NCBI GenBank assembly: GCA_947478845.1
Contig: CANJXC010000005.1
Coordinates: forward strand, 80,246 to 144,245
DNA from: Spirochaetales bacterium
GTDB lineage: Bacteria; Spirochaetota; Spirochaetia; JABEVK01
Reading direction: 5' to 3'
DNA: 64,000 nt
The first letter of the stretch is position 1; the number at the start of each line of letters is the position of its first letter. Below are positions 16,346 to 62,584 of this stretch, piece by piece. Both the position numbers and the translations under genes were made by a program. The notes under the pieces are model-generated. The model was given only the letters and a program-made list of their open reading frames with translations. It was not told the DNA's origin and ran no database searches.

Positions 16346-16357
16346 GGGACAGACCTC
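16346..16357 (+). repeat. dispersed word GGGACAGACCTC, copy 1 (intergenic, tandem with copy 2)
   Basis: exact 12/12. Confidence 0.9.
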
Positions 16358-16363
16358 ACGCTG

Positions 16364-16375
16364 GGGACAGACCTC
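16364..16375 (+). repeat. dispersed word GGGACAGACCTC, copy 2 (intergenic, 18-nt period with copy 1)
   Basis: exact 12/12. Confidence 0.9.
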
Positions 16376-16381
16376 GGAGGG

Positions 16382-17479
16382 CTAAACGCTTAGATGTAAG
16401 CCAAGTTCTATAGTCCACCAAAAGGCTTTGTTGTTGCTAATGGGCAGACCCAGTGAATCGTTGTCGAGCAACGGAAGGCCCGCTGAAACGACGACTGAGG
16501 CCAGTCCCAGAACATCGAGGGACAGACCTCCCCCCACCGAAGCCAAAGGGCCCGAAGAGTCCTGGGTCCCTGATTTCCAGACGCTGGTGGAACTCATGTC
16601 GTTGTAACCGCTGTAGTAGCCATTATCGCTAAACACAAACATCGTAGGCAGCAGGTCGGCCTTGCCCAGTAGCGAGGGCAGGTTGACCCGGAGCTCAGCG
16701 GTGGCGTAGGCGCGTAACCTTGTGTCGAGCCGGAGCGGATAAGCGCGGACGTCGGTCTCCTCTAGCATAAAAATAGGCACTTGGGACCCTTGAATGTACT
16801 TGGTGTTGGCCCTCAGCACGAGATAGGCCGACAGCAGGTTGCTCTCGCCTTCGAGATCGAAAAGCGGCACAAACTCGGTCACTTCTGCCTTCAACCTCCA
16901 GAAGTCGGTTGCCTGCAGCGAGAGGAAACTCGGCCCCCATTCACCTTCGGCTATCACCTGAATGCCGTCGCGAACTTTGTGGTCGGTTTTGGTTGTGTTG
17001 TCGAGTAACAGGCCGCCAGCCAAACTGCCCATTCCGGCGCTGTTACGATCGGGGAAAATCGACGCTACGGAGGTGCCCAAATTAACTTCGGCGCGAAGGT
17101 TGAGCGAGCCCCAAACCGACAACAGGTCCCGGGATTCCTCCAGCGGTATCAAGCCCTGCCGAAAGCCGAGTTCCCACTGCAGGTCGGGCTTGTTGGTCCT
17201 AGGCATTTCCGTCGCCCCAAAAGGCTGGGGATTGCCGGTGACATCGTCGCGGTAGACCCTGAAGTTCTCATAACCGAACCCAAGTTCACTTTCGAGGTCG
17301 GTACGCAGACCTGGAAGCAACTGCCATGGGCCATAACCGAACTTCAGGATAGGCCCGGTGGGAACGACAAACCAATTGACCTTGATGTTGTAGAGCGACC
17401 AACTGAACCCGGCTTCCTGACTCCCGGCGACCTGAGCGGCAAGAAAAAACGCAACGAGCAGAGCGGCGAACCTGCGCAT
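16382..17479 (-). CDS. secreted hypothetical protein (signal peptide; possible outer-membrane or surface protein)
   Basis: Signal peptide MRRFAALLVAFFLAAQVAGS. 365 aa. No recognisable catalytic motifs. Confidence 0.55.
   Translation of the reverse strand: MRRFAALLVAFFLAAQVAGSQEAGFSWSLYNIKVNWFVVPTGPILKFGYGPWQLLPGLRTDLESELGFGYENFRVYRDDVTGNPQPFGATEMPRTNKPDLQWELGFRQGLIPLEESRDLLSVWGSLNLRAEVNLGTSVASIFPDRNSAGMGSLAGGLLLDNTTKTDHKVRDGIQVIAEGEWGPSFLSLQATDFWRLKAEVTEFVPLFDLEGESNLLSAYLVLRANTKYIQGSQVPIFMLEETDVRAYPLRLDTRLRAYATAELRVNLPSLLGKADLLPTMFVFSDNGYYSGYNDMSSTSVWKSGTQDSSGPLASVGGGLSLDVLGLASVVVSAGLPLLDNDSLGLPISNNKAFWWTIELGLHLSV
16519..16530 (+). repeat. dispersed word GGGACAGACCTC, copy 3 (antisense inside secreted-protein gene)
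   Basis: exact 12/12, followed by CCCCC. Confidence 0.9.
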
Positions 17480-19298: not shown

Positions 19299-20624
19299 GT
19301 GAAAGTTCCTAAAATTTCCATCAAGACTTGGCGTGCTTCCCGGAATCCGGTATGGAGAGAACCGGTCAAATGGGGCTGGTTTCCCTGGTTGGTCGATCTC
19401 CTAGGCCCAGTGTACACTCGCTTCGGATTGGGGCTGGGCAGGCTGGAACTCGAGGGTTCCGAGATTCTGGCTCGGGCTCTGCGCGGTGTTGCCGAACAGG
19501 AAGACCGACTACTGCTTGTGTTTCGCCATTGTGGCGACGCCGACCCTCATGGTGTTTACTATGCGCTGAACTCGCTGGCAAAACCGGCTTACCGGCGTGC
19601 CGGCGTGAAACGGCCTCGGTTCTTGTTTCTGGCCAGTGCGGAAATCGCCTTATGGGGTGGTGGGCTGACCAACTTCGCCTTGCGTGCCGGGGGAACCCTG
19701 GCAATGGCTCACGGACCAGGATCGCGAACGGCCCTCCACTACGTGCGCAACCATTTCCGCAATAGCCCCGACCCTGTGGTGATGGCGCCGGAGGGCCAGA
19801 TCTCTTACGAACTGAACGGCCCCCTTGTCCTCGACTCGGGAGCAGGCAACTTTGCCCAGTGGGCGACTGCATCCACCGCGGGAAGCGCCAAAATTATCCC
19901 CATCGGCTTGCGCTACCTGACCCCGGACGAAACTTGGACCCGCTGGAACCGGTTCCTGAATGCCTTGGAAAAAGGCGCAGGGTTGCCGCCCTGGAAAAAG
20001 CTGGTTTCGGTGGAAGCCGATGCTGCGACCCGGCTTCGCCGAGTTTGGGATCATCTTCTCACTCGGGGAGAAAGCTACTACCGTCAGAAACATCTGCGTA
20101 GTTTTTCGCCCCAACCTTCCTTGAATGCCCGCTGCCGTCAATTGACCCGGGTGGCCGTTGAGGCGGGCGCCCGCTCGCGTAACATCGCGGTGGGGGACGA
20201 TCTAAGGCCAAGTATATTCGAACTGCGGTATTCGGCCATGGACCTAGTGTTTCCTCGCCCCCGAGGTCTGTCCCTCCTTGAGCAGGCCATGGACAACCGG
20301 GCTGCCGCCGAGGGATGGTGGAACAACCGGCACCAAGACCTCGCCGACCTGCTCAATTACCTCAACCCTGATTCCTTGCCCGACCACCCGACGCTGGAAC
20401 TCGCGGTGGAAACGGCCCTCAATCTGGCCGATTTCGCTGGCCGGCTCGCAGGGGGCACCCTCAAGCACCGCCCCCGATATTTTCGCAGGTTGTTGCAGCT
20501 CAAGATCGGTGACCCGATTCTCGTACCGAAGGACAACAAACATTCCCGCAAACAGAGGGCGCAAATCCTCACGGGGCAAATCAAGTCCGCCTTCGAGGGG
20601 CTCCGCAAGGAAGGGCTTCCTTGA
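19299..20624 (+). CDS. lysophospholipid/glycerol-phosphate acyltransferase-family protein with long C-terminal extension
   Basis: HX4D motif (FRHCGDADPH) and a PEGQ block. Divergent from the GH3 gene with a 36-nt spacer. Confidence 0.55.
   Translation: MKVPKISIKTWRASRNPVWREPVKWGWFPWLVDLLGPVYTRFGLGLGRLELEGSEILARALRGVAEQEDRLLLVFRHCGDADPHGVYYALNSLAKPAYRRAGVKRPRFLFLASAEIALWGGGLTNFALRAGGTLAMAHGPGSRTALHYVRNHFRNSPDPVVMAPEGQISYELNGPLVLDSGAGNFAQWATASTAGSAKIIPIGLRYLTPDETWTRWNRFLNALEKGAGLPPWKKLVSVEADAATRLRRVWDHLLTRGESYYRQKHLRSFSPQPSLNARCRQLTRVAVEAGARSRNIAVGDDLRPSIFELRYSAMDLVFPRPRGLSLLEQAMDNRAAAEGWWNNRHQDLADLLNYLNPDSLPDHPTLELAVETALNLADFAGRLAGGTLKHRPRYFRRLLQLKIGDPILVPKDNKHSRKQRAQILTGQIKSAFEGLRKEGLP
20263..20274 (-). 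repeat. dispersed word GGGACAGACCTC, copy 4 (minus orientation, antisense in acyltransferase gene)
   Basis: exact 12/12 as GAGGTCTGTCCC, preceded by CCCCC. Confidence 0.9.
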
Positions 20625-25454: not shown

Positions 25455-26837
25455 ATGTACGATATCATCATTGTTGGCGGCGGCCCGGGTGGCTATGTTG
25501 CCGCCGAAAGAGCCGGAGCCCGTGGCTTAAAAGTGCTCCTCATTGAGAAAGAGTTCCTGGGCGGCACCTGCCTCAACTGGGGTTGCATTCCCACAAAAAC
25601 GCTGCTGAACTCCGCCAAAACCTACGCCCATGCGTTGCATGGAGAACGCTTTGGCCTCCATGCCGAAAAAGTGATTATGAACTGGGCAGAGGCGCTTGCC
25701 TGGAAAGCTGAGGTGGTCACCAAATTGCGCGGTGGCGTTGCCTTCCTCATGAAGAAGTTTGGGGTAGAAGTGGTCAACGGCACCGCCGAGCTTGTTGACA
25801 GGAATACCGTGCGAACAGTCGAGGGACAGACCTACCAGGGAAGAAACCTCATTATCGCCACCGGGAGCTCGCCCGCCATGCCCCCCCTGCCCGGCACCAA
25901 AGACAACCCCAAAGTGGTCAGCAGCACCAGTTTGCTCGACCTCAAAGAAGTTCCCAACCGCCTTGTGGTCATTGGTGGTGGCGTCATAGGCGTTGAGTTT
26001 GCCAGCCTGTTTGCCACCCTGGGAAGCAAGGTTACGGTGGTCGAGATGATGGACGAGATTATCCCGTTCATGGACAAGGAACAGGCACCCCAGTTTCGTA
26101 AAGCCTTGTCCAGCGTCCCGCACTCTGGCCTGCTGGACGCCAATATCGACTTCCAACTTGGCTGCAAGGTGGAAAAGCTCGAGGGAGGCACAGTTCAGTA
26201 CACCGGGAAAGACGGAGCCAAGAGCGTCACCGGCGACGTGGTGCTGATGGCTGTCGGACGCACCCTGAATGTGAAGGGCTTGGGTCTTGAGGCGCTCGGA
26301 GTGGACTTCGGCCCCAAAGGTATCGTCGTGAACGAGTACCAGCAGACCAACCTTCCGGGTGTGTACGCTGTTGGCGATGTCACGGGCCGCAGCCTCTTGG
26401 CTCACTCGGCCAGCCGCATGGGCGAAGTTGCCGTCAGTGCCATTATCGACGAGCCCCACAAACGCCAGCGGATGCGCTACCACGCCATTCCGTGGGTGGT
26501 GTACAGCAATCCTGAGGCCGCCGGCGTGGGCCTCACCGAAGATGAGGCCAAAAAACAGGGAAAGAACGTGGTGACGGCCACGGTTGCGTTGCGCAACATG
26601 GGTCGATATCTGGCCGAAAATGGCCCCACGGGTCCCGGCGCCACCAAAGTGATCGTCGACAAAGACACAGACCGAATTCTAGGTATCCACATGTACGGCG
26701 CCGGAGTTGGCGAGATGATCTGGGGCGGCGCGGCCCTCATCGAATTGGAGCTGCGGGTTCACGAGGCCCGTGAACTCATTTTCCCTCACCCCACGACCGG
26801 CGAGTCCATCCGAGACGCCCTCTGGGAACTTCACTAA
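25455..26837 (+). CDS. lpdA: dihydrolipoyl dehydrogenase (E3)
   Basis: GGGPGGY FAD motif and redox CLNWGCIPTK. Confidence 0.95.
   Translation: MYDIIIVGGGPGGYVAAERAGARGLKVLLIEKEFLGGTCLNWGCIPTKTLLNSAKTYAHALHGERFGLHAEKVIMNWAEALAWKAEVVTKLRGGVAFLMKKFGVEVVNGTAELVDRNTVRTVEGQTYQGRNLIIATGSSPAMPPLPGTKDNPKVVSSTSLLDLKEVPNRLVVIGGGVIGVEFASLFATLGSKVTVVEMMDEIIPFMDKEQAPQFRKALSSVPHSGLLDANIDFQLGCKVEKLEGGTVQYTGKDGAKSVTGDVVLMAVGRTLNVKGLGLEALGVDFGPKGIVVNEYQQTNLPGVYAVGDVTGRSLLAHSASRMGEVAVSAIIDEPHKRQRMRYHAIPWVVYSNPEAAGVGLTEDEAKKQGKNVVTATVALRNMGRYLAENGPTGPGATKVIVDKDTDRILGIHMYGAGVGEMIWGGAALIELELRVHEARELIFPHPTTGESIRDALWELH
25823..25833 (+). repeat. dispersed word, copy 5 (11/12: GGGACAGACCTa) in lpdA, sense
   Basis: Encodes E-G-Q-T-Y. 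Confidence 0.8.
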
Positions 26838-26860: not shown

Positions 26861-29317
26861 ATGCCCAAAGCCCTTACCGTTGACCCCAAAGTTGTCCGCC
26901 AGCCCGGAGTTCTCAAGACGAAGGACATCCCGCTGAACCAGTATAAAGGCGATATCCAAGTCGAGCTGAAAAAGTACGGCAAGGACAAGCTGGTGCGGAT
27001 CTTCCACACCATGGCCACTATTCGCGAGTTCGAGTCGATGCTCAACCTCGTCAAAACCCAGGGAGGATACAAAGGGGTAGACTACAACCACCGCGGCCCG
27101 GCCCACCTTTCCGCCGGGCAGGAGGCCAGCTCCACGGGTCAGTCTTTCGCCCTCGATGTGCAAGACTTCACCTTTGGCAGCCACCGCAGCCACGGCGAGA
27201 TCATCTCGAAGTGCTTTGCCGCGGTATCCCAATTGCCCGACGAAGAGCTTCTCAAGGTGATGAAAGCTTTCTGGGGTGGTGAAACCCTGAAAGTAGCCGA
27301 AAAGGCCGGAGCCAACAGCACCAAGGAACTGGCCGACGACTTCGTGTTGTACGGTGCCCTTGCCGAAATCTTTGCCAAGTCCCCCGGCTTCCACCGTGGT
27401 TTGGGCGGCTCGATGCATGCCTTTTTCGCACCTTTTGGCATGATGCCCAACAATGCACTGGTGGGTGGTTCGGCCGACATCGCCACAGGCGCCGCTCTCT
27501 TCAAGCGCATCAACGGCAAACCCGGCATTGTTGTGAGCAACGTCGGCGATGCCGCCATGGGTTGTGGCCCGGTGTGGGAGGCGATGATGTTCGCTGGAAT
27601 GGAACAGTACCGCACCCTTTGGGGCAAAGACGCTGGCGGTGCGCCGCCCATCCTTTTTAACTTCTTCAACAATTTTTACGGCATGGGGGGACAGACCTCG
27701 GGCGAAACCATGCCCTACCAAATCCTAGCCCGCGTCGGTGCCGGTGTGAACGCTGCGGCCATGCATGCCGAGCGTGTCGACGGCTACAACCCGCTGGCGG
27801 TGCTTGATGCGGTGGAACGCAAAAAAAAGATTCTCTTGGCCGGCGAGGGCCCGGTTCTCTTGGACACCATTACCTACCGCCTCAGCGGCCACTCACCCTC
27901 CGATGCCTCGAGTTACCGCACCAAAGAAGAGATAGAGCTCTGGGAAAATGCTGACTGCGTCAAGAGTTACGGCGAGTACCTAGTCAACGGTGGCGTCTTG
28001 AAAGCCAATGAGGTGGAGACCATCCGCGCGGGCATTGGAGCCAAGATGGACAGCATCTACAAGCTTGCCATCGACATGAACGAGTCTCCGCGCATCCAAG
28101 GCGCCTACATCGAAACGGTGATGTTCAGCAACCAAAAGGTCGACAAGCTCGAAGACCGCAAGCCGGAAACTCTTTTGCTCCGTGGCGAGGATCCCCGCAG
28201 CGTTTCGCTGAAAACCAAGGCACGCTACGCTCTCGACGCCGAGGGAAAGCCACTTCCCAAGGCCAAGATATTCGCCTACCGCGACGGCCTGTTTGAAGCC
28301 ATGCTGCACCGGTTTTATGAGGATCCGACCATGGCAGCCTGGGGCGAAGAAAACCGCGACTGGGGTGGCGCGTTTGCCGTTTACCGCGGCCTCACCGAAG
28401 CACTGCCCTACAAGCGACTGTTCAACAGCCCCATCAGCGAAGGCGCCATCGTGGGCTCGGGTGTAGGCTATGCTCTGGCCGGTGGGCGCGCGGTGGTAGA
28501 ACTGATGTATTGCGACTTCATGGGCCGCGCAGGTGACGAGATTTTCAACCAAATGGCCAAATGGCAGGCGATGTCGGCCGGCCAACTTCGCATGCCGCTG
28601 GTACTTCGCGTCTCGGTGGGAGCCAAGTACGGAGCCCAACACAGCCAGGACTGGAGCGCACTAGTAGCTCACATTCCTGGGCTCAAGGCTTACTTCCCCG
28701 CCACGCCTACCGACGCCAAGGGCATGCTTAACCTCGCTCTGCGGGGTACCGACCCTGTGGTCTTCTTTGAAAGTCAGAGCCTCTACGACGTGGGTGAGCT
28801 CTTCGAAAAAGCCGGTGTACCGGAAGGCTTCTATGAGACTGCCGAAGGTGAACCCGTTGTACGCCAAACTGGCAAAGACCTCACCATCGCCACTCTGGGA
28901 GCTACCCTCTATAAGGCCGTCGACACGGCAAAAGTTCTCAAAGACAAATATGGCCTGGAAGCCGAGATCATCGACCTGCGTTTCATCAGCCCGTTGAAGT
29001 ACGACGTTCTTCTGGATTCAGTGAAGAAAACGGGTAAACTCCTTCTGGCAAGCGACGCGGTCGAACGGGGCAATTTCCTCCACACTGTCGCTTCTACGGT
29101 GACCCAAGTGGCCTTCGATTACCTTGACGCTCCAGTTGCCGTCGTGGGAAGCCGCAACTTCATTACTCCTGCAGCTGAGATGGAGGAAGAGTTTTTCCCG
29201 CAACGAGAATGGCTTCTCGATACCATCCACGAACGGATTCTCCCGTTGAACGGACACACTCCAACTACGGTTCAAACCTCGGGAGAAATTCTTCGCCGCA
29301 ACCGGTTGGGAGTTTAG
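26861..29317 (+). CDS. fused E1 component (alpha+beta subunits in one 818-aa polypeptide) of a thiamine-diphosphate dependent 2-oxoacid/acetoin dehydrogenase
   Basis: The N-terminal half carries the TPP-binding alpha-subunit region (GGSMHAF...). The C-terminal half is a transketolase-like beta subunit. Fused E1 alpha/beta genes are annotated in other bacteria (for example Bacteroidetes). Confidence 0.85.
27688..27699 (+). repeat. dispersed word GGGACAGACCTC, copy 6 in E1 gene, sense
   Basis: Exact 12/12. Encodes G-G-Q-T-S. Confidence 0.9.
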
Positions 29318-47963: not shown

Positions 47964-48029
47964 ACTGTATCACTTATTTGCACTGATGGGAGTGAGATTC
48001 TTGCGTTCATCCGAAAAAAATGATACAGT
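47964..48029 (+). promoter_or_regulatory. pair of 9-bp inverted half-sites ACTGTATCA ... TGATACAGT (48-bp spacer) in the AT-rich divergent promoter region
   Basis: Perfect 9-bp inverted repeat. Located between the sugar ABC operon and the ArsR-like regulator gene. Confidence 0.3.
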
Positions 48030-48050
48030 TCGCAAAGGGTGAACTTAGTT

Positions 48051-48974: not shown

Positions 48975-49211
48975 TCTGTTATCTGATGGTTGCTCCCGTA
49001 AGTACGTCTGCGGCGGGCAAGGCGAAACGGCGGTGACTGCTCTCGGAGTTCTGGGGGGATTCTCGCCCGGAATTAATCCGATGTATTGTAGTTATCCTTC
49101 ACTTTGATTGTATGCGGTGGCCGTTGGTGCCAAACAGTCGGGGTAGAAGGAAGTGGGTGAAGAACCTGCTAGGTCCCATACTGAGAACCTACGAAAGAAT
49201 GGAGTTTCACC

Positions 49212-50144: not shown

Positions 50145-51193
50145 CACCAGTGATCCCCGACCGCCAAGCTTGGTGGGTGCTGCTACCCTTGGCGGTAGCG
50201 CTCGGCGGGCTGGTCCTCTTAGCCACAGCCGTGGGTTCGGTGTCAGTCCCTCTAGGCGATGCAGTCACCGTGATCTTGGCTCGTTTGGGCGTCCCAGCCA
50301 CCTTTTTGGCCTCGCTTCCCGACCCTAAGTGGGACGCCATCATTTTCTTGGTGCGATTGCCGCGGGTGTTGGGGGCCACGGTCATCGGGGCAGCCCTAGC
50401 CGTGGCCGGTACCGTGATGCAGGGTCTGTTGCGCAATCCTTTGGCCGATCCGGGGCTTATTGGCGTGTCCAGTGGTGCAGGCTTTGGCGCTGTGCTCTCC
50501 ATAGCGCTAGGTTTCGCTGCCACCAGTTCGTGGTCCCTGCCAGTTTTCGCTTCGGTGGGCTCTTTGGTGGCAACGGGCATCATTTTCCTGCTGGCCATCC
50601 GGGCAGGAAAGATGGGTCTGTTCACGCTGATCTTGGCGGGCATGGCCGTGGGCACGTTTTTCGGTGCCAGTACTTCGCTGGTGCTCACCTTTGCCAGCCA
50701 CGACAGCATCGCGCAGTTTCTGTTTTGGTCCATGGGAAACCTTTACAACGTGCGGTGGGAGTCCTTGCAGCTGGTTGCTTTACCCATCGGGGGCGGGATC
50801 TTTCTGCTCCTGTGGTTTGCCCGCGACCTGAACGTGCTGCTGCTCGGAGAGGAGGAAGCCCAAGCCGTGGGGGTAGATGTTTTTCGCACACGGTTAGTCT
50901 TGTTGGTGCTGGTTTCAGCAGTGACAGCCTCTGCGGTGTGTATTAGTGGCCCGATCAGCTTTGTGGGGCTGGTCGTACCCCACATTCTGCGCCTTTTGCT
51001 GGGGCCCAACCACCGGCTTCTGGTACCCGCAGCCGCTTTGGGCGGTGCGGCGTTTCTTGTGGTTTGCGACCTCGTAGCCCGGTTGGCTTTGGGCGCCCAG
51101 GAGATCAACGTGGGAATCGTAACCGCCTTGGTTGGCGCACCTTACTTCGTGTTTCTGCTTCTGCGTAGCGTCAAACGAGGCATAGACCTGTGA
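50141..51193 (+). CDS. FecCD-family ABC permease
   Basis: 350 aa, polytopic. Overlapping stop/start with flanking genes. Confidence 0.9.
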   Translation: MTPVIPDRQAWWVLLPLAVALGGLVLLATAVGSVSVPLGDAVTVILARLGVPATFLASLPDPKWDAIIFLVRLPRVLGATVIGAALAVAGTVMQGLLRNPLADPGLIGVSSGAGFGAVLSIALGFAATSSWSLPVFASVGSLVATGIIFLLAIRAGKMGLFTLILAGMAVGTFFGASTSLVLTFASHDSIAQFLFWSMGNLYNVRWESLQLVALPIGGGIFLLLWFARDLNVLLLGEEEAQAVGVDVFRTRLVLLVLVSAVTASAVCISGPISFVGLVVPHILRLLLGPNHRLLVPAAALGGAAFLVVCDLVARLALGAQEINVGIVTALVGAPYFVFLLLRSVKRGIDL

Positions 51194-52443
51194 GTTCCTT
51201 GATGGTTCGCGGTTTGCGTTGCTCGCTTGGCGGTACTGAAGTACTCCGGGGGCTTGATCTGGAGGTGAACCCGGGGGAAATCGTCGGGCTTCTTGGACCC
51301 AACGGCGCCGGCAAGTCCACCCTGCTGCGCTGCGTGGCAGGACTCCTGCCTTTTTCTGGGCAGATAGAAGTCAGAGGACAACCTGTGTCTTCGTCCGAAA
51401 GGCGTGGGCTAGGCCCGCGCGAGCTCGCCCTGCAGGTGGCACTGATGCCGCAAAGCACAACTCTCACCTCTGCGTTCCCGGCTGCCGACGTGGTGATGAT
51501 GGGCCGCTATCCGCATCAGGGGCGTTTCCAAGCCGAGTCGGCCGAAGACCGCCGGGCCGTAAAAAACGCCATGGCCTTTACCGCCACCGAGGCACTGGCC
51601 CTGCAACCCATAAACCAGATGTCGGGCGGCGAGCGACAGAGAGTACTGTTTGCGAAAGTTCTCGCGCAGGATACGCCTCTTTTGTTGCTCGATGAGCCTA
51701 GTTCCGGCCTTGACCTAGCCCACCAGCAGCTCACCTTCTCGTACGCCCAGACTCTGGCGTCCCAGGGCAGAACCATCGTGGCGGCCGTGCAAGACCTGAG
51801 ACTTGCGTCAACCTTTTGCACCCGAGTCATATTGTTGTCGCAAGGCTTGATACTGGCGCAGGGGACACCACAGGAGGTTTTGACGGGCCAGAATCTGGAA
51901 GCCGCCTACGGTGTAAAGGTGCGGGTGTACGTTAATCTAGCGACGGGCCAGTTTGACTTCCACCTCGATGGCGCCGAGCCCTCAGAAACAGCCCCCTTGG
52001 TGCACGTGATCGGTGGAGGAGGTTCCGCCTCTTCGGTACTCCGCCTGCTCACCCAGGCGGGCTACCGGGTGACCACCGGTGTGCTCAGCCCCGGAGACAG
52101 CGACTTGTACGTGGCCAACGTTTTTGAGCTTCCCAGCATTGTCTCACCGCCTTTTTGGCCCATCGAAGAGGCAGTTCACCGCCAAAATTGCGCTTGGGTG
52201 CGCGAGGCTGACCTGGTGGTACTGTGCAATTTGGTTGTGGGGGCCCAAAACCTGCGCAACCTCGAGGCCGCGACGCACGCCAACGAGCTCGTAGTCCTGG
52301 AAGATCAGCCCATGAGCGAGCGGGACTTCACCGGTGGAGCTGCCTTGGATGCCTACAGCAAGCTCACGGCCAGGGCGAGGGTCATGCGGTCGGCAGAGTT
52401 CCCTCGCTGGCTCAAGACACTGTTTTACCCTATGAAACATTGA
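51190..52443 (+). CDS. ABC ATP-binding protein (FecE/BtuD-like) with about 150-aa C-terminal Rossmann-like extension
   Basis: Walker A GPNGAGKST, LSGGERQR and Walker B LLLDEPSSGLD within the first about 260 aa. The remainder includes HVIGGGGSASSVLRLL...ADLVVLCNLVVG. Confidence 0.85.
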   Translation: MSSLMVRGLRCSLGGTEVLRGLDLEVNPGEIVGLLGPNGAGKSTLLRCVAGLLPFSGQIEVRGQPVSSSERRGLGPRELALQVALMPQSTTLTSAFPAADVVMMGRYPHQGRFQAESAEDRRAVKNAMAFTATEALALQPINQMSGGERQRVLFAKVLAQDTPLLLLDEPSSGLDLAHQQLTFSYAQTLASQGRTIVAAVQDLRLASTFCTRVILLSQGLILAQGTPQEVLTGQNLEAAYGVKVRVYVNLATGQFDFHLDGAEPSETAPLVHVIGGGGSASSVLRLLTQAGYRVTTGVLSPGDSDLYVANVFELPSIVSPPFWPIEEAVHRQNCAWVREADLVVLCNLVVGAQNLRNLEAATHANELVVLEDQPMSERDFTGGAALDAYSKLTARARVMRSAEFPRWLKTLFYPMKH

Positions 52444-52475
52444 CACGGTGAGTGGTCACCGATAGCTTGGTTTGT

Positions 52476-53258
52476 ATGCCTGATCGGAAAAACACCAGCC
52501 CCGTTGTCCAGACTCTCGACCGTGCTCTCAAGATCATTGAGCTTCTTGCTGTTCACGCCGAAGGGTTCGGGGTAACGGAGATCGGGAAACGGGTCGGACT
52601 CCACAAGAGTACCGTTCACCGCCTGTTGGGTCATCTTTTGGCCCAAGGGTACATCGAAAAAGACGAAGAACGGGCCAACTACACCCTAGGACTCAAGTTC
52701 ATTGAACTGGCTAGCCTGCGCATGGGACATGTGGAACTCAAAACTGAAGCGGGACCCTATTTGCGAAAGCTGGCGGCCCAGGTCGACCAACCGGTGCATC
52801 TGGCCATCCTTGACGGTACCGACGCGGTTTACATCGAGAAAATTGAGCCCAGAGCGCACCTGCGCATGTACTCGCAGATCGGCAGGCGTATCCCGTTGTC
52901 GTGCTCGTCGCTCGGAAAGTGCCTGGTTCTTGACCTTCTAACCCCGGAATTAGAGGCGCTGGCCAATAAAATGACCTACCACCCCTTCACCGCCAAGACC
53001 CGCGTCACCGCCCAAGCCTTTTTGGCAGACGTAGAAGCGGCCCGTGGGCGGGGCTGGGCCCTCGACGATGAGGAACACGAGCCTGGGATAAGGTGCATCG
53101 GAGCCCCGATCCGTGATTTCACAGGACGCGTCGTTGCGGCTTTGAGTGCCTCTGGAGACGTGGCCGTGATCCGACCAGACCCGGAAGCCAAGGTCAGTGC
53201 TTTGGTGTGCGAGGCTGCTGAGGCCATTTCCCGCCGTTTGGGGTGGCTGGGACCCTAG
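52476..53258 (+). CDS. IclR-family transcriptional regulator (KdgR-like)
   Basis: HTH region VTEIGKRVGLHKSTVHRLL and a C-terminal IclR effector domain. Alternative start 52452. Confidence 0.85.
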   Translation: MPDRKNTSPVVQTLDRALKIIELLAVHAEGFGVTEIGKRVGLHKSTVHRLLGHLLAQGYIEKDEERANYTLGLKFIELASLRMGHVELKTEAGPYLRKLAAQVDQPVHLAILDGTDAVYIEKIEPRAHLRMYSQIGRRIPLSCSSLGKCLVLDLLTPELEALANKMTYHPFTAKTRVTAQAFLADVEAARGRGWALDDEEHEPGIRCIGAPIRDFTGRVVAALSASGDVAVIRPDPEAKVSALVCEAAEAISRRLGWLGP

Positions 53259-53285
53259 TCAATGAGGCGTTTACCTCAGGTCACT

Positions 53286-54062
53286 CTAGCGGGCTAGCCA
53301 ACCTCCGTCGACGGGTACAAGGGCCCCAGACATGTAATCCGAGGCGGCACTGGCCAAGAAGATGGCCGGCCCCATGAGGTCGGTGGCCTCGCCCCAACGC
53401 CCAGCCGGTATGCGCGCCAAAATGGATCGGCTGCGCTCTGCATCGGCCCGTAACCCAGCGGTGTTGTCGGTGACCATGTAACCTGGGGCAATGGCATTGA
53501 CCTGGATATTGTGCTGGGCCCACTCGTTGGCCATGGCCTTGGTGAGCCCAGCGAGTCCGCTTTTGCTAGCGGTGTAACTTGCCACCCTGATACCCCCCTG
53601 AAAGCTGAGCATCGAGGCAATATGGAGAATTTTTCCACCAGTTTTTTGCTTCAGGAACTGCTTGGCAACGGCTTGACTGAGAAAAAAAACAGTCTTGAGG
53701 TTAAGATCCATCACCTCATCCCAGTCTTTCTCGGTGAAATCGACCATGTCGACCCGCCGGATGGTACCAGCATTGTTCACGAGGATATCGATGCGGCCGA
53801 ATCCCTTCAGAGTAGCTTCAACAATAGCAGGGATGGGTGACGTAGTGGTCAGGTCAGCTTGCACCCAAAGGAATTGTCCTCCTGCGGCTTCCACTTGCTC
53901 CTTGGTTTGGGCCGACGAACTGGAGCTGACTCCCACGACGCTGGCACCAGAGCGGGCGTAGGCCACGCAGATAGCCTGGCCTAGCCCGCGGGAACTTCCC
54001 GTGACGATGGCCACCTTTCCACGGAGGGAAAACAGGTTTGAGCCGGGGTCTCCTTGGCTCAA
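53286..54062 (-). CDS. kduD: 2-dehydro-3-deoxy-D-gluconate 5-dehydrogenase
   Basis: Near-colinear match to E. coli KduD (ASMLSFQGGIRV.SYTASKSG, NAIAPGYM, GPIVFLAS.ASDY). TTG start overlaps the kduI stop. Confidence 0.9.
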   Translation of the reverse strand: MSQGDPGSNLFSLRGKVAIVTGSSRGLGQAICVAYARSGASVVGVSSSSSAQTKEQVEAAGGQFLWVQADLTTTSPIPAIVEATLKGFGRIDILVNNAGTIRRVDMVDFTEKDWDEVMDLNLKTVFFLSQAVAKQFLKQKTGGKILHIASMLSFQGGIRVASYTASKSGLAGLTKAMANEWAQHNIQVNAIAPGYMVTDNTAGLRADAERSRSILARIPAGRWGEATDLMGPAIFLASAASDYMSGALVPVDGGWLAR

Positions 54063-54895
54063 CGAAGATCCCCTGTCGCCACTTGGTCCATATCGTCGAA
54101 GCTCTGGTTTTCGCCTGCCATTGCCCAGATGAAGGTGTAACTCCCGGTGCCGACTCCGGAATGGATGCTCCAAGAAGGGCTGATCACGGCCTGTCGGTCG
54201 GCGACAACCAGATGGCGGGTCTCCTGGGGTTGGCCGTGCATGTGAAAGACCCGGGTATCGGCAGCCATGTCAAAATACAGGTACACCTCCATACGTCGCT
54301 CGTGGGTGTGGCACGGCATGGTGTTCCAGACGCTGCCGGTCTCCAGTAGGGTCATTCCCATCACCAGTTGGCAGCTTTGGCAGACGGCCGGATGCACATA
54401 TTGGTAAATGGTGCGCAAGTTCACCGTTTCGGGGTTCCCGACCTTACGGGGGTTAGCCTTGCTGAACTCGATTTTCACTGAAGGATACTTATGGTGGGCC
54501 GGAGAACTGACCAGGTAGAACTGTGCCGGATTCATCGGGTCTTTGCTGGAGAAAGAGACCCCCTTGGTGCCCATTCCAACATAGAAACCATCCCCCTTAA
54601 CCATCGAATGGCTTGTGCCATCGAAGGCTAGGCTCCCCTCTGCGCCAATGTTGATCACCCCTAATTCGCGTCGTTGTAGGAACTCCTCGCTTCCGAAGTC
54701 CTTGCCTCCAACGAGGGTGAGCGGTTTTTCTTGGGGTGTAGCGCCACCGAAAACCATTCGGTCGACGTGGGTGTAAGTCAGCGCAATTTGGCCGGGTGCA
54801 AAGACCTTCTCAACGAGAAATTGCTCACGGAGTTTGGTGGTGTCGTAGGCTTTCACGTCTTCGGGATGATGCCCGTAGCGGATGTCGAGTTTCAT
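54059..54895 (-). CDS. kduI: 4-deoxy-L-threo-5-hexosulose-uronate ketol-isomerase
   Basis: Match to E. coli KduI (WNTMPCHTHERRMEVY, GQPQETRH, ISPSWSIHSGVGT). Confidence 0.9.
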   Translation of the reverse strand: MKLDIRYGHHPEDVKAYDTTKLREQFLVEKVFAPGQIALTYTHVDRMVFGGATPQEKPLTLVGGKDFGSEEFLQRRELGVINIGAEGSLAFDGTSHSMVKGDGFYVGMGTKGVSFSSKDPMNPAQFYLVSSPAHHKYPSVKIEFSKANPRKVGNPETVNLRTIYQYVHPAVCQSCQLVMGMTLLETGSVWNTMPCHTHERRMEVYLYFDMAADTRVFHMHGQPQETRHLVVADRQAVISPSWSIHSGVGTGSYTFIWAMAGENQSFDDMDQVATGDLR

Positions 54896-54911
54896 GGCTT
54901 CTCCTCAAATC

Positions 54912-55961
54912 TCAGCGTTTGACCCGGCCTGTGGCATCGCCAGCGATAAGGCCTTCCACCTCAGCCTTGGTGGCAAGGTTGAAATCGCCGGGGACGCTAT
55001 GCTTGAGGCAACTCGCCGCCACGGCAAACTCCAGGGCCCTAGCCTCTTCGAGGTCTGTCCCCGAAGTAACGACATCTAGACAATAAATGAGGCCAGCAGA
55101 GAAACTATCTCCACCGCCTACACGGTCGACGATGTCGTCGATTTCATAGCTGCGGCTCTGGTAAAACCCCGTTTTGCCGTCGAGTACGGCCGACCATCCG
55201 TTGCTGTCAGCCGAACGGCTCGACCTGAGGGTGACGGCAACTCGCGTCAGGTTGGGGAAAGCTTTCTTCACTTTGTGGGTGAGGCTCTGGTAGGAGTGCG
55301 CATTGAGGTGCCCAGCCACTACGTCGACGCCATCGGGGTGAATGCCGAGGCACATCTGGATATCTTCCTCGTTGGCGATGAGCGTATCGACGTGCCTCAC
55401 CAGTTCGGTCATCACCTCTGGCGGCTTCTTGCCGTAGTTCCAAAGCTTTTTGCGGTAGTTCAGGTCAAGACTCACGGTAAGGCCGGCTTTACGAGCGGCT
55501 TGCAGGGCTTCGAGAGTCGCATCGGCTGCCGATTGCGAGAGCGCCGGTGTAATGCCTGTCACGTGGAACCAGGAGGCCCCCACGAACAGGGCGTGCCAGT
55601 CAAAATCGCCGGGCTTCACCTGGCTGATGGCTGAACCTTCTCGGTCGTAAACGACCGTGCTCCCTCGCTGATTGGCTCCTGTCTCAAGAAAATAGATTCC
55701 CAATCGCCCGCTCTTGGTGCGACGAATACCATCAACCTCGACACCATAGCCTCGGACCTCGCGCAGGGCTGCATCCGCCAGCGGGTTATCGGGCAGGGCC
55801 GTGACAAAGCTAGCCTGACGGCCGAGCAGCGCAAGCGAAACCGCCACGTTAGCCTCGCCACCACCAAAACTCGCCTCAAGAGCCGACGATTGGAAGAGCC
55901 GCTCGTGACCGGGGCTCTTGAGGCGCAACAGGATCTCTCCGAAAGTGACGACTTTAGGCAT
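54912..55961 (-). CDS. kdgK: 2-dehydro-3-deoxygluconokinase (PfkB family)
   Basis: 349 aa. PfkB motifs GGGEANVAV and GGGDSFSAG. Operon context with kduID and eda. Confidence 0.85.
55050..55061 (-). repeat. dispersed word GGGACAGACCTC, copy 12 (minus) in kdgK
   Basis: exact 12/12. Confidence 0.9.
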
Positions 55962-55970: not shown

Positions 55971-56618
55971 TTAATTCGGGTTCCGGGCCGACCGGACAGC
56001 CTCGATGAAGGCGCGGGCAGTACGGGTAACCTTCTCGTAGTCACCGGAGAGGGCCCCGTTTGTCAACTGGCTACCCACCCCAACCGCCACCGCGCCTGCT
56101 GACAGCCAAGCTTTCACGTTCTCGAGGTTGACTCCCCCGGTTGGCATCATTCGGGCCTGAGGGATGGGGCCTAAAACCCCTTTGATGAATTGCGGACCCG
56201 CCACCTCGCCAGGAAAAACCTTGATGAGGTCTGACCCTGCTTCCATGGCGGCGACCACTTCGCCCACGGTCATTGCTCCCGACATGCACGCCATTCGGTA
56301 CCGATTGCAAAGCCGAACGGTTTCCAAATTGAGGCATGGGGACACAATAAAGTTCGCCCCTTCGAGAATGGCGATGCGAGCTGTTTCGGGGTCAAGCACC
56401 GACCCTGCACCCAAGAGCAGTTCTCTTGAGAGGAATCGGCGCTCGAGGGTAGCGATCACTTCGTGGGCCCTCGGCACGGTGAAGGTTACTTCAATGGCAA
56501 CGACACCGCCTTCCAAGCAAGCTTCTGCAATTCTTAAGGCTTGGTCTGCGGACTCAGCACGAACCACGGCAACGACACCCGACTCACGGATGCGTAGCAA
56601 GACCGATTCTTTGTCCAT
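55971..56618 (-). CDS. eda: KHG/KDPG aldolase
   Basis: Class I aldolase Eda motifs (VVAVVR, EVTF, GAGSV, FPG). GGGAG RBS before ATG 56618. Upstream ATG 56636 has no RBS. Confidence 0.9.
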   Translation of the reverse strand: MDKESVLLRIRESGVVAVVRAESADQALRIAEACLEGGVVAIEVTFTVPRAHEVIATLERRFLSRELLLGAGSVLDPETARIAILEGANFIVSPCLNLETVRLCNRYRMACMSGAMTVGEVVAAMEAGSDLIKVFPGEVAGPQFIKGVLGPIPQARMMPTGGVNLENVKAWLSAGAVAVGVGSQLTNGALSGDYEKVTRTARAFIEAVRSARNPN

Positions 56619-58300: not shown

Positions 58301-58321
58301 ACCTAGATAACTTGATAGGAA

Positions 58322-59842
58322 TCATCCTCCATAATTGGCTGACCAGCTGAGAAAGGTTTCGGCAGCTAGTTCATGATTGGAGGGAACATAAAGGTTTACT
58401 TCAAAGGACTTTGCCACGGCTTGTCGTGCTTCTGCTATCGAACTGAAGGTCCCCAGGGCAACAAACTGGCAGGCAATATTTCCCAAAGCGGTGGTTTCAG
58501 CGGGACCGGTGAAAACCGGTCGGCCGCAGATGTCGGCGGTTAATTGGCAAAGCAAAAGGTTTTGCGCCCCTCCCCCGACAAGCCAGAGTTCGCCAAACTG
58601 TTTACCGGTTACCATTTCCATTTTCTCAAGGCTACTGCGGAACTCGCAGGCCAAGCTTTCGAGTACACAGCGGATTATGCCACCACGACCTTGCGGTAAC
58701 GGCATCTTCTTCTTGCGACAATACTCTTCTATTCGCCCCGGCATGTCGCCAGGAGTAGAGAACATCGGGTCTTTGACGTCGATGAGGCTGGCGCCCCAAG
58801 GGGCCCCGGTGGCCCATTCCACTAGGTCGCGGTGCTCCCATTTCTGACCGTCCCGCTCCCACCAGCGCTTGCACTCTTGCACCAGCCACATCCCCATGAT
58901 GTTGCTTAGAAGCAGGTTGGTTCCAAACGCACCGGCCTCGTTGGAGAATCCACCCAGACGAGCTTCCTCGCCCAACACCGGTGCATTTAGTTCCGTAGCC
59001 AGCAGGGCCCAGGTTCCGCAGCTGATGAACGCAAACGGTTTTCCCGAAGTGGAAGGAACCGCCAGTGCGGCGCTTTCAGTATCATGGCTGGGCACAAGCG
59101 CAACTTGGGTATCGGGGGACAGACCTACTTCTCTTGCCACCTCGGGAAGAAGAGGGCCAAGAAGTGTTCCCGGTTCAAGGACATTCTGCATCAAGTGAGG
59201 TGGAACCCCCAGTTTCTCAAGAATATCCTGGTCCCAATCGACCTGACCTGCCCTCAGCATTTGCGAGGTTCCCGCGATGGTTCTTTCCGCGGCTTTTCGC
59301 CCGGTTAGAAAATAATTGAGCAGGTCAGGGGAGAACAGCAACGTTTCGGCGCCTTGCAGAAAGTTTGGATCTGCTTCGAGAGCGCCACTAAGCTGCCCTG
59401 TGGTGTTGAACCAGAACTCCTGGACCCCGGTACGCCGAAAAAGGACTCCTTCGCCAAAACGGGCCGAAAGTTTGGAAACCTGTCCTTCGGTCCGTTTGTC
59501 CCGGTAATGAACGGGATTTCCCAGAAGCCTACCCTTCCGGTCCAACAGACCAAAGTCGACACCCCAGGTGTCGATACCTAGGCATCGGATGGTGTCGCCA
59601 GGGGGAAGGGTGCGAATCGCTTCGCGGATGCCTTTCTGTGTTTCGTGAAACAGGCGAAGGATGTCCCAATGCAAAGTTCCAACGACCTCTACAGGCTCGT
59701 TATCAAACCGATGAACCTCCTGAAGTTCCAGCTTTCCTGCAGCCAAGTTCCACGAACCTCGTATCACCCGACCACCGGAAGCGCCGAGGTCAATCGCGAG
59801 AACGTGGTCCACAGGGTTAGTACCTTCCGTAGAGCGGACCAT
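58322..59842 (-). CDS. rhaB: FGGY-family ketose kinase, rhamnulokinase (RhaB)-like (could act as L-fuculokinase)
   Basis: Motifs shared with E. coli RhaB ([39 protein letters not shown]). Start ATG 59842. Confidence 0.8.
59116..59126 (+). repeat. dispersed word, copy 13 (11/12: GGGACAGACCTa), antisense in kinase gene
   Basis: preceded by CGGGG. Confidence 0.8.
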
Positions 59843-61619
59843 AGGCGGCGCAAGCACGATAGTCGCCACTTTCTGGCTCGGAAGTTCCAAAGGCCGACCA
59901 AGACGCCGGGCGGAACACCTTATCAGGATCGACGTTGTGCATGCACACAGGAATGCGAAGCAGAGCACACAGAGCAATCAGGTCGGCACCGATGTGCCCG
60001 TAGCTAAAGGCACCATGGTTGGCACCCCAGTTGTTCATCACCGTGTACACGTCGCGGAAAGCTCCGTGTCCGGTAACGTTGGGCGCAAACCAAGTGCTTG
60101 GCCAGGTGGGGTTGGTACGGTCTTCCAAAGTCTTCGCCACCACCTTGGGAAGGTTGACGGTGTACCCTTCGGCCAACTGAAGCACAGGACCGACACCGGC
60201 CACGTGGTTCAATCGCACCAGCGTTACGGGCATTTCGCCCTCGGTCGACCAAGTGGAGGAGAAACCGCCGCCGCGGAAATACTCTGTGATGGCCGGTCCC
60301 CAGGTGGTGGCTTTGAGCGAAGCGGTCACATCTTCTTCGGTTATCTCCCAAAAGGGTTTCATCAGGCTGTTGCCTTTTTTGTCTTTCATCCTGCCGGCAC
60401 CATCAAGGGCGGCGGCACCTGAGTTGATCAGGTGGATGATGCCTTTCGCACTATGACCTTCGAGCTTGTGGCCGGTGACCCGCTTCACAGAATCCGGGCT
60501 CCAATAGGTGCGTACATCGGCGAAAACTTGGGCCGTTCCCGTCAGCAGGTGGCTGAAGAGCATGGTCACGCCATTGAGGCTGTCGTTTTCGGTGGCGACC
60601 ACGAAGGCCTCGCGTATCCCGTTCCAATCGAAACTGCTGCACAGGATGGCCTCAAGGAAATCGCCATTGGGCGAGTGGTCGGTCCAAGCCCTTTGACCCT
60701 GAAAACCCGAGGCGATTGCATTTCGGCCCAAAGCCTCCTCACCGAAGCCGAGCTCGGCAAGTCGGGGGTTGCCAATCATCAAATCTCGGGCGATGAGTAC
60801 CATCTTCACAACGTATTCCCACTCTTTGTCGAGCTGGGGTTGCTTCTTCTTGGCTTTAGGCGGGTTGAGGTCTGTCCCTTGCGGACAATTCTTTTTGACC
60901 CAGGTGAGCGCTTTCTTAAACTCTTCGGGGTCAAAAATACCTTCATCGATGCGCCGGGAGAACTCACTCATGTCTACAAACTCATTTCGCATCCCGAGGT
61001 ACTTCTGAAAAAAGTCCTCATTGACAATCGAACCGGCGATGCCCATCGAAACCGAACCTATCGAAAGGTAAGAGCGTCCCTGCATGGTCGCCACGGCAAG
61101 GCCGGCTCTGACAAACCGCAGGATTTTTTCTTGCACGTCTGAAGGGATTTTCGTGTCGCCAGCTTCCTGAACTTCATGGCCATAAATGCCGAAACAAGGA
61201 AGGCCCTTCTGCGCATGGGCAGCAAGGACGGCTGCCAGGTACACGGCGCCGGGGCGCTCTGTGCCGTTAAATCCCCAAACGGCCTTCGGGGTCAGTGGGT
61301 CCATGTCCATAGTCTCGCTTCCATAGCACCAGCAAGGGGTTACCGTTAACGTCAGTCCTACCCCTTGCTCACGGAAATACTCCCGGCATCGGGCAGCTTC
61401 GTTGACTCCCCCTATCGTTGTTTCTGCAATCACGCATTCGACGGGTTCACCGCTGGGGTGGCGGAGGTTCTTGCTGATAAACTTGGCAGCAGCCTTAGCC
61501 AGATTCAATGTCTGCTCCTCAAGCGATTCCCTTACGCCGTTAAGGCGACCGTCGATCGTAGGACGGATTCCCACTTTGGGCAGTGCAGCCTTCCAGATTG
61601 CTGATGTTTTCTTTGCCAT
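59817..61619 (-). CDS. fucI: L-fucose isomerase
   Basis: 600 aa, colinear with E. coli FucI ([48 protein letters not shown]). Confidence 0.95.
60867..60878 (-). repeat. dispersed word GGGACAGACCTC, copy 14 (minus) in fucI
   Basis: exact 12/12. Confidence 0.9.
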
Positions 61620-61642
61620 GTCGTCTCCTTGATTGAAAAGTT

Positions 61643-62584
61643 TTATTGAAGGTCACTAAGACTTGGAATAGAAGGGATTCCCCCCCTCTTAGTGGTCGAG
61701 GCCGAGCCGGACTTCACACCAAACGCTGCCAAGGCGGCGGCTTCAGCGGGGAGAACCTCAGAGGGGGCCTTGCCCAACGCCAGAAGGGAATGCAGGACCC
61801 CAGCCATGAAGCAGTCGCCGGCTCCTGTGGTATCCACGACTTTTACGGGCGCCGGGCTCTGCCGACCCCACTCCCCGCCACATTTCCAAAGACAACCCTG
61901 AGGCCCGAGAGTGACGAAAAACAGAGGAGCCGGAAACTTTTGGTGGAGGCGCTTAGCTTGCGCAAACGGGTCACCTGCCGGCTCGTCCAACGCAAAGGCC
62001 ACTTCCTCTTCGCTGATTTTCACAATGTCTGCGAGGGACAGACCTCCCTGGATGGCCCGCCGGGCTTCTGCCGGATTTTCCCAGAGCCGAGGTCGGTAGT
62101 TGGGGTCGAAACTAATGGTCACGCCGGCTACTTGATGTGATTTCGCTGAAGCCAGGTTGTTGGCAAATCCCACCGACTCGCACATCGAAACTGTACTGAA
62201 ATGAAAAATCTGCGGCAAATGGGAAGCGTCGGCAAGAGCTACCGGAAGGCCCGCACAACTTGTTCCCTGCCACAGGAAATCAAAACTGCGGTCTCCGTGG
62301 GCATCGAGTGAGACGATAGCCATGGTGGTTGGAGGAAAATCGCTCGTCAGGCGAGAGGTATCGACTTTGCCGTCCTCTAGGGTTTTTCTCAGGAGGCTGC
62401 CAAGGGCATCAGCACCTACGCGGCCTGAGAAACTGACGCGGTGGTCCCATCGCCCGAGAGCAACAGCGAGGTTGGCGACACCCCCACCGGGAAGCGCCTC
62501 GTAAGCCGGGAAACCCATGGGTCCGGGACCGTGCTGTGAAAGGTCTATGAGTACCTCACCGTGGGCCAGCACTTCAGGGTTCAT
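61643..62584 (-). CDS. PfkB-family sugar kinase (fructokinase-like)
   Basis: [15 protein letters not shown] and [12 protein letters not shown] motifs. Overlaps the fucU stop. Confidence 0.8.
62045..62056 (+). repeat. dispersed word GGGACAGACCTC, copy 15, antisense in PfkB kinase gene
   Basis: exact 12/12. Confidence 0.9.

Follow-up and report, generated by a model that had tools for sequence, protein, structure and literature searches.

The DNA analyzed here is a stretch of 64,000 nucleotides, hereafter the window, from a Spirochaetales bacterium (assembly GCA_947478845.1, contig CANJXC010000005.1, positions 80,246 to 144,245). It represents ordinary chromosome with sugar-catabolism genes, a 2-oxoacid dehydrogenase complex, and the genes for AspRS, MsrA/B, and LeuC, and scans of the window with Rfam and ARAGORN detected no RNA and no tRNA. 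A 12-nt word, GGGACAGACCTC, is dispersed through this DNA, and a gene for a RAYT, a tyrosine transposase associated with repetitive extragenic palindromes (REPs), is located approximately 380 nt beyond the right end of the window. The word, the gene, and the relation between the two are the subject of this report.

The dispersed word and the RAYT gene

The window contained 11 exact copies of the word and four copies with one mismatch, for which a dinucleotide shuffle gave expectations of 0.00 and 0.44, respectively. Alignment of the copies with their flanks indicated a conserved unit of 12-13 nt with unconserved sequence past 13 nt, and a purine preceded the word in all 15 exact and one-mismatch copies. 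The exact copies were split between the strands (6+/5-), with a density of about one per 4-6 kb. Within the window, the word extended at least 48 kb from the RAYT gene without thinning and was therefore not confined to the RAYT neighborhood. Beyond the right end, four further exact words were present on longer contig copies (loci L001 and L002), which brings the exact copies to 15 over the known 72 kb of this genome; 11 of them (73%) were located in genes with Pfam support.

The RAYT gene was an intact open reading frame (ORF) of 170 aa at the window-equivalent positions 64436-64948 on the plus strand (L002 6672-7184, minus strand). Its product scored 82.9 bits against the NCBIfam model NF047646, "REP-associated tyrosine transposase" (cut-off 80), and matched Pfam Y1_Tnp, the sole domain found. 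The HUH motif NHFH and the tyrosine motif Y-x-x-x-N-P (YLDENP) were both kept in 44 homologues, and a PDB search with the RAYT family profile returned E. coli TnpA-REP (4ER8, E = 9e-11) as the sole match. Exact words flanked the gene in its own orientation, with 43 nt between the first word and the ATG and 41 nt between the stop codon and the second word, which is a direct arrangement. The locus order LacI - RAYT - Zn-ADH was identical in eight assemblies of 98.5-100% identity, and the RAYT behaves as a fixed, vertically inherited gene at this locus that is apparently domesticated. A profile search of all six frames of the window itself found no RAYT. Most RAYT homologues sat on contigs of about 1-2 kb, which suggests that assemblies tend to break at RAYT genes or their flanking repeats. 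The positions of the word copies are listed in Table 1.

TABLE 1 Copies of the word and near matches in the window and beside the RAYT gene
Match	Position	Strand	Location	Reading	Remarks
Exact word	16346-16357	+	Intergenic, between a CYTH gene (15829-16302, -) and ORF 16382-17479 (-)		First of a direct pair, 6 nt spacing
Exact word	16364-16375	+	Intergenic		Second of the direct pair
Two mismatches, GGGACTGGCCTC	16497-16508	-			Inverted partner of the 16519 copy, 10 nt apart; sole hairpin-like pair in the window
Exact word	16519-16530	+	Antisense, 3' part of hypothetical ORF 16382-17479 (-)	GGLSL	
Exact word	20263-20274	-	Antisense, hypothetical ORF 19299-20624 (+)	RGLSL	
One mismatch, GGGACAGACCTA	25823-25834	+	Sense, dihydrolipoyl dehydrogenase gene	EGQTY	
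Exact word	27688-27699	+	Sense, fused 2-oxoacid dehydrogenase E1 gene	GGQTS	
Exact word	34707-34718	-	Sense, PfkB kinase gene 34559-35737 (-)	RGQTS	Kept in strain L092
Exact word	34842-34853	-	Sense, PfkB gene 34559-35737 (-)	EGQTS	Kept in strain L092
Exact word	37114-37125	+	Sense, mannitol-1-phosphate dehydrogenase gene	GTDL	Kept in strain L092
Two mismatches	38080		Sense	GTDM	
One mismatch, GGGACAGACCTG	40165-40176	+	Sense, isochorismatase-family gene	GTDL	L092 has GGAGCAAACCTC (GANL)
Exact word	55050-55061	-	Sense, KDG kinase (PfkB) gene	GTDL	
One mismatch, GGGTCAGACCTC	56226-56237	-	Sense, KDPG aldolase gene	GSDL	
One mismatch, GGGACAGACCTA	59116-59127	+	Antisense, FGGY kinase gene	VGLSP	
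Exact word	60867-60878	-	Sense, L-fucose isomerase gene	GTDL	Kept in strains at 98.5-99.1% identity
Exact word	62035-62046	+	Antisense, PfkB kinase gene 61643-62584 (-)	GGLSL	Kept in strains; last before the RAYT gene
Exact words beyond the window	64382, 64989 (window-equivalent)	+			Bracket the RAYT gene

Two regions, 1-16345 and 40177-55049, contained no copy with up to one mismatch. The first of these had no match even at two mismatches, while about six such matches were expected from the rest of the window; its genes include those for AspRS, MsrA/B, and LeuC, and with this housekeeping content, recent acquisition is not an obvious reason for the gap. The second region included a strain-specific island of 8.6 kb (40592-49200) carrying GH2 and other genes, mostly on the minus strand. 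The island had a lower G+C content, of 52-56%, and zero word copies at up to one mismatch. Strain L092 (97.3% identity) did not have the island and carried a 1.27-kb segment with an AAA_14/DUF4143 gene in its place. The gap at the island is consistent with slow accumulation of the word in DNA that has been resident for long.

Contigs that had been assembled independently from three samples contained parts matching the window at 100% identity. An assembly artefact is ruled out, as at least 10 independent assemblies of different samples had the word copies at identical positions. Seven further strains, one at 97.3% identity (L092) and others at 98.5-99.1%, had the exact and one-mismatch words at unchanged positions and the RAYT gene at the same locus. 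The 96 word columns held no segregating site, compared with 1.7 expected, or none compared with about 2.9 expected when L092 was added; this absence is suggestive but was not statistically significant. The near-copy at 40165 differed from L092 at four positions and was part of a patch of 11 substitutions in about 55 nt (window 40125-40185, L092 13210-13270) between strains that are otherwise 97% identical. Word-specific conversion at this site is disfavored, and the clustered substitutions look like an ordinary short recombination tract. The best homologues of three proteins were proteins of Spirochaetota metagenome-assembled genomes (MAGs) at 62-71% identity, with 71% as the best value for E1, which points to a probably uncultured spirochaete that lacks close relatives among sequenced genomes.

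Between sugar-metabolism genes of the window, a PIN-domain toxin gene was found at 33829-34511 on the minus strand, and a small upstream ORF overlapped it by 4 nt. The two likely constitute a VapBC-type toxin-antitoxin pair.

Reading frames and origin of the genic copies

Thirteen of the 15 window copies were located inside ORFs, most of which had Pfam support, and only three of the six reading frames occurred among the genic copies: GTDL and (G)GQTS in the sense orientation and GGLSL in the antisense orientation. The word itself is free of stop codons in all six frames. When synonymous codons were shuffled with the protein sequences kept, 0.07 exact coding copies were expected and nine were observed; the corresponding values were 0.73 and four at one mismatch, and 6.3 and eight at two mismatches. 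Since the excess faded to near nil at two mismatches, the enrichment is restricted sharply to exact copies. The window proteins contained four GTDL and three GQTS peptides, all of them encoded by the word or a one-mismatch form of it, using the Thr codon ACA, which was otherwise unused: ACC was used in TDL without a preceding Gly and in GTD without a following Leu, except for the two-mismatch GTDM at 38080.

In the E1 gene, the word encodes GGQTS inside the universally conserved YGMGGQTxGETMG, with no indel relative to 80 homologues, and the identical GGQT motif of these homologues was spelled by the word in none of the 80 genomes. The GTDL of FucI (60867) stood gap-free at G-P-D-N or G-F-D-H of solved homologues, and that of KDG kinase (55050) aligned to G-F-D-S of the closest solved homologue, with small nearby gaps that reflect a variable loop. 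The indel check of the window copies covered these three genes; the PfkB gene 34559-35737 had no PDB relative. In related genomes, CarB GGQT as well as RpiA GGL and GADL carried the local form of the word, which at CarB stood at aligned residues with no indel. Because the residues aligned without indels in E1, FucI, and KDG kinase, every checkable genic copy in the window was shown to have arisen by base substitution at near-word codon strings (GGQT, GxDx, GGLx). The copies were filtered by protein tolerance, and the three frames in use were those that give mild peptides. Candidate near-cognate proto-sites are GGCGGCCAGACCTCC and GGTCCGGACAAC. An insertion origin was ruled out for the copies in E1, FucI, and KDG kinase by the aligned residues. 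A larger element around the word, such as a REP or a miniature inverted-repeat transposable element, was ruled out by the unconserved flanks and the rarity of hairpin partners.

An earlier note on this DNA, written from the letters alone, had described a dispersed 12-mer far above chance, present in both orientations and several frames, mostly inside genes, usually preceded by a purine, conserved at the DNA and not the protein level, and missing from 1-16 kb and 41-55 kb, and all of these observations were borne out. The density it had placed in the range of uptake sequences is indeed there, and also in the range of Chi. Its copy list was confirmed with amendments: the copy given as 62045 is at 62035, the one at 56226 on the minus strand had been missed, and what was given as a partial copy at 38079 starts at 38080 and has two mismatches.

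Linkage of the word and the RAYT gene across genomes

The context of RAYT homologues was analyzed at seven loci obtained via a protein index and 80 loci obtained via a metagenome scan with a family alignment, and dispersal was scored within 10 kb to either side of the RAYT. The controls were 80 loci (1.28 Mb) from genomes sampled via an unrelated gene, with about 45 Spirochaetota MAGs among them. Homologues with 68% and 60% identity, from genomes with 61% and 47% G+C, had this word on both sides, again in direct orientation. The core GGG[A/T]CAG was present in gene orientation within 250 nt upstream at 55 of the 79 RAYT loci that had enough upstream sequence, compared with 6.4% of control windows at the same loci, and the nearest upstream core was mostly found at -51 to -75 from the RAYT start. 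The logo of the RAYT-proximal copies read R GGGACAG [A/T][G/C] C [T/c], followed by unconserved sequence, and its extent of 12-13 nt equals that of the dispersed word.

The core followed the RAYT phylogeny, with GGGACAG at RAYTs of at least 41% identity and GGGTCAG at distant ones (29-38% identity). This match spanned genomes with 25-69% G+C, and the RAYT was found in differing gene neighborhoods in different genera. The downstream copies were less uniform, with a direct orientation in 10 and an inverted one in 12 of 78 loci; flanks were direct at L002, L084, and L087, and an inverted copy 51-62 nt downstream was present only in L117, L119, L124, and L137. These data show that the linkage of motif and RAYT is conserved across many genomes. 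The control loci contained no exact word and 11 one-mismatch matches, RGGGACAG occurred at the chance level of 0.045 per kb, and no 10-mer was present three or more times. The conservation of individual copies in related genomes, which the earlier note had proposed to examine, held for all words in the seven strains, and no exact word was found in the 80 related and control loci.

The dispersed 10-mer was the same as the RAYT-proximal 10-mer in 11 of the 12 loci that had both an upstream copy and dispersal. The dialect ending in ACCTC was dispersed in this genome and at L087, and at L084 it flanked the RAYT without dispersal. Other dialects were GGGSCAGACCTC at L088, ...TGCTC at L089 and L090, ...ACCCCA at L091 (39.5% G+C, nine copies in 20 kb), ...AGCT[CT] at L100, L110, L111, L124, L126, L133, and L137 (up to 32 copies in 20 kb), and ...TCC at L105. 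The densities of dispersed dialects reached about 1.5 per kb. Hence, the dispersed dialect co-varies with the dialect at the adjoining RAYT. A flanking motif without dispersal was observed at L084, L113, L136, and L142 and in the GGGTCAG group. The strand counts in relatives were balanced (L124 11/14, L111 7/6, L098 6/8), and over all loci, 15-20 of 605 core sites (about 3%) had a complementary arm within 40 nt.

Genic and intergenic calls based on ORFs only are unreliable in the G+C-rich loci of relatives, and Pfam-supported examples were used instead. At L111, the word was found inside Pfam-supported helicase, ImuB-like, and DnaE2-like genes, among others; the ImuB-like/DnaE2-like mutagenesis cassette (8473-12825) contained eight copies of the local dialect, seven of them in the DnaE2-like gene. 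REPs inside dnaE2 genes were noted by Di Nocera et al. (PMC3733652). In AT-richer relatives, intergenic copies of the word were also arrayed directly in tandem, at periods of 19-39 nt. At L124 (16950-17110), an in-frame array of the local dialect formed an insert of about 50 residues, composed of SSVP/ELCP/ALSP units, that splits the DHFR domain, and at L091 (15950-16050), a 39-nt duplication in frame in a YfiH-like gene encoded EGQTP twice. Since word arrays were inserted in frame in genes of relatives, the word family has a copy-paste or expansion mode in addition to a substitution mode. At L090 (1-11000), four RAYT paralogues were interleaved with RHS/YD-repeat toxin cassettes, and about 20 nt before each RAYT ATG was GGG followed by a perfect 13-bp hairpin (ACAGTGCTCGGCT...AGCCGAGCACTGT) with the word as its left arm, which hints that the word descended from a REP-like hairpin.

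Next to the RAYT of a Spirochaetales MAG (L084, 7296-9161), there was a diversity-generating-retroelement-like pair consisting of a bAvd accessory gene and a reverse transcriptase, and two BrnT/BrnA toxin-antitoxin pairs were directly beside the same RAYT. A viral link was also sought via adjacent word pairs. The one match, on the IMG/VR contig L173 (37% G+C), was a short 12-nt coding unit repeated head to tail at 1640-1700, (GGGACAGACCTC)n with variants of the form GGGTCAGACCTC, within an ORF of 447 aa, and was judged to be probably coincidental.

Interpretation and comparison with known systems

We consider it likely that a Y1 HUH single-strand DNA transposase of the RAYT/TIRYT type, where TIRYT denotes the tyrosine transposases associated with terminal inverted repeats (TIRs), has R-GGGACAGACCTC as its cognate DNA motif. 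A fixed RAYT gene bracketed by a short sequence that is over-represented across the chromosome would constitute a REP-RAYT-like system. By analogy with the IS200/IS605 enzymes and with E. coli TnpA-REP, which has been studied biochemically, the RAYT would bind, and probably cleave and rejoin, the word in single-stranded DNA. We also infer that the word is recognized by the RAYT and enriched through its activity instead of by ordinary selection. As candidate routes, a word unit could insert beside a near-cognate site and leave the word after excision or slippage, word-bearing single strands could be processed with a bias during recombination, or a host function that depends on the RAYT could be under weak selection. 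A conversion drive that requires the RAYT and replaces near-cognate codon strings by the exact 12-mer is a tentative proposal, and we would sooner expect it to be wrong than right. In a more radical sub-case, the RAYT may act on incoming single-stranded DNA, with the word as a cytoplasmic self-recognition or recombination signal. The earlier note had also allowed for an unknown genome-word signal, which came nearer to this result, although the REP/RAYT and TIRYT systems to which the word belongs were not considered there.

Several points weigh against the RAYT as the enzyme behind the word. Classical REPs are palindromic, extragenic, and insertional, whereas hairpin partners were found here at about 3% of the core sites and 11 of 15 exact copies were genic. 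The best-resolved genic copies are substitutions, not insertions, and to our knowledge, substitution-type copies are not explained by any known Y1-transposase chemistry. At this locus, the flanking copies are direct, whereas those of REPtrons and TIRtrons are inverted, and the binding and cleavage of the word by the RAYT are proposed by analogy. The RAYT alone is not sufficient for spread, because some RAYT loci have the flanking motif without dispersal, and no gain or loss of a word was seen among the seven strains, which gives no sign of ongoing activity. Furthermore, the comparison loci were anchored on RAYT genes and the control genomes may carry this RAYT as well, and the counts cover 72 kb of this genome, so that "genome-wide" is an extrapolation.

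An alternative that we regard as unlikely is a host word with a function of its own, such as uptake, repair, or nucleoid organization, which an IS200-like RAYT merely targets or borrows as an insertion site or end. Some insertion sequences target REPs in a like manner, the direct word-gene-word layout resembles an IS200/IS605 element inserted 3' of its target, the RAYT neighborhoods differ between genera, and a host-level drive would account better than transposition for genic copies that arose by substitution. However, no candidate host factor is known, the RAYT was found at one fixed locus in eight strains instead of hopping, and the core tracks the RAYT phylogeny across 25-69% G+C. Moreover, the motif is present at RAYTs without dispersal (L084, L113, L136, L142, and the distant group), so that the motif at the gene looks primary and its dispersal secondary. 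The reading favored in the earlier note, a DNA uptake sequence like the DUS of Neisseria or the uptake signal sequence (USS) of Pasteurellaceae, driven into the genome by biased uptake and recombination, appears improbable. The length of 12-13 nt, the spacing of about one per 5 kb, and the near-equal strands would fit it, as would the substitution-type genic copies with their frame filtering, the predominance of exact over near copies, and the absence of the word from the strain-specific island of lower G+C content. The likeness to uptake sequences that the earlier note had drawn holds for this genic behavior, while uptake itself is unsupported. It provides no reason for a fixed distance upstream of the RAYT at 55 of 79 loci or for dialects that track RAYT lineages, and the word was present in none of the roughly 45 related Spirochaetota loci and in 0 of the 80 related and control loci overall, tracking the RAYT gene instead. 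The inverted terminator pairs typical of DUS were nearly absent, in-frame tandem word arrays such as those in genes of relatives are not a feature of uptake sequences, and the competence genes that the earlier note had suggested looking for were not found, with no com or pil gene in the annotated 72 kb.

A polar host signal of the Chi (RecBCD/AddAB) or FtsK-orienting polar sequence (KOPS) type is very improbable. The density of Chi in E. coli resembles that of the word, and the mostly genic placement via codon choice would also suit such a signal, but the word has 12-13 nt instead of 5-8 nt and showed no orientation bias in the window (6+/5-) or in several relatives, which is a weak test of replichore polarity. 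Such a signal would also leave the RAYT linkage unexplained. There is hardly any chance that no DNA signal exists and that the word is a by-product of a shared peptide motif in paralogues, of codon usage, or of assembly. In favor of it, three host genes encode kinases of the PfkB family, and the peptide motif at several copies is rich in G. However, the copies occupied non-homologous positions of unrelated proteins in three frames and were also intergenic, the codon-preserving shuffle predicted 0.07, the GGQT of homologues was never word-encoded in 80 genomes, and the copies were identical in at least 10 independent assemblies. A single peptide motif in paralogous genes, which the earlier note had kept in view as a source of all copies, was ruled out by the non-homologous sites, the three frames, the intergenic copies, and the shuffle.

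The function of RAYTs and the spread of their repeats are a long-standing question, and the work on it has centered on hairpin REPs, intergenic DNA, and Proteobacteria. The RAYT clade described here offers a simpler substrate, a hairpin-free word of 12-13 nt with clear dialects in many uncultured lineages including Spirochaetota, and this word attains densities like those of DUS and is present in conserved genes as indel-free copies. Should the RAYT be the driver, a domesticated transposase would, in a new way, influence the coding sequence, the choice of codons, and even the amino acids of proteins across the genome, REP-type repeats would be joined with words of the DUS/USS/HIP type, which have so far been treated apart, and each RAYT would be testable in vitro against its own dialect. 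If the tentative conversion drive were true, this would be the first substitution-type "genome word" driven by a HUH single-strand DNA transposase, and RAYT-type enzymes would be able to rewrite coding sequence at constant length. Surveys via flanking 16-mers or hairpin searches would overlook such words.

In the literature searched, matches to the word or its dialects were limited to unrelated primers and eukaryotic sequences, with nothing in this context. The word of cyanobacteria, HIP1 (GCGATCGC), is likewise very abundant, short, genic as well as intergenic, and made by substitution, with a driver that is not known, but it is an 8-nt palindrome, and the link proposed for it is to methyltransferases rather than to a Y1 transposase. 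DUS and USS share with the word described here a short, non-palindromic form, a hundreds-fold over-representation on both strands, accommodation in genes by substitution in the least harmful frames, lineage dialects, and absence from recently acquired DNA. Unlike the word, they are not tied to a transposase gene and are shared by whole families of related species, DUS often occur in inverted terminator pairs, and the function of both rests on the competence machinery.

Intragenic REPs and Rickettsia palindromic elements, as in Opitutus terrae and Rickettsia conorii, are in-frame units in functional genes, where they are insertions that add 20-80 residues (PMC3733652). The in-frame arrays in relatives (DHFR in L124, YfiH-like in L091) are of the same kind, whereas the window copies add no residues. 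The REP-RAYT and REPIN-RAYT systems of Proteobacteria also have a single, fixed, vertically stable RAYT bracketed by the most over-represented short sequence, as well as a co-variation of repeat and RAYT between lineages, and TnpA-REP is the only solved structure matched by the present family. REPs are imperfect palindromes of 20-40 nt with a 5' GT[AG]G tag that are extragenic, often form inverted doublets, and spread as insertions. In contrast, the word is hairpin-free with an RGGG tag, 73% of its exact copies in this genome are genic, and it arises in genes without indels; the only REPIN-like inverted pair in the window was the imperfect one at 16497/16519. A high frequency of the flanking oligomer was described as a core RAYT feature by Bertels et al. 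in a survey that used 16-mers (PMC5581495), which would miss this word because it is only 12-13 nt long.

The word thus differs from the described REP and TIR families in form and genomic behavior. In TIRtrons, terminal inverted repeats that share GGGGWSAS (PMC3733652, PMC6006769) lie on both sides of the TIRYT gene at a similar distance, and some of these repeats form moderately abundant families (PMC3733652). Most TIRYT genes were equated with subclass 2.1, in which no REP-like structure was found and whose proteins have about 238 aa and a C-terminal helix-turn-helix (HTH) domain (PMC6006769, and Table 1 therein). Compared with these, the flanks here and in the closest relatives are direct rather than terminal inverted repeats, the unit has only 12-13 nt, and the protein has 170 aa without the C-terminal HTH domain of subclass 2.1, a W motif of W-G instead of W-[EQ], and the Y motif YxDENP. 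The word is also dense (one per 0.7-5 kb), mostly genic, and in many copies a substitution, which is unreported for TIRs in the papers compared. On the other hand, the TIRYT systems (approximately subclass 2.1, Bertels group 1) likewise combine a RAYT-like Y1 HUH gene with a repeat at a roughly constant distance, and in some genomes, the flanking repeat is a moderately abundant dispersed family. Since the core R-GGG[A/T]CAG fits GGGGWSAS exactly, TIRtrons with their TIRYT genes are the closest known kind.

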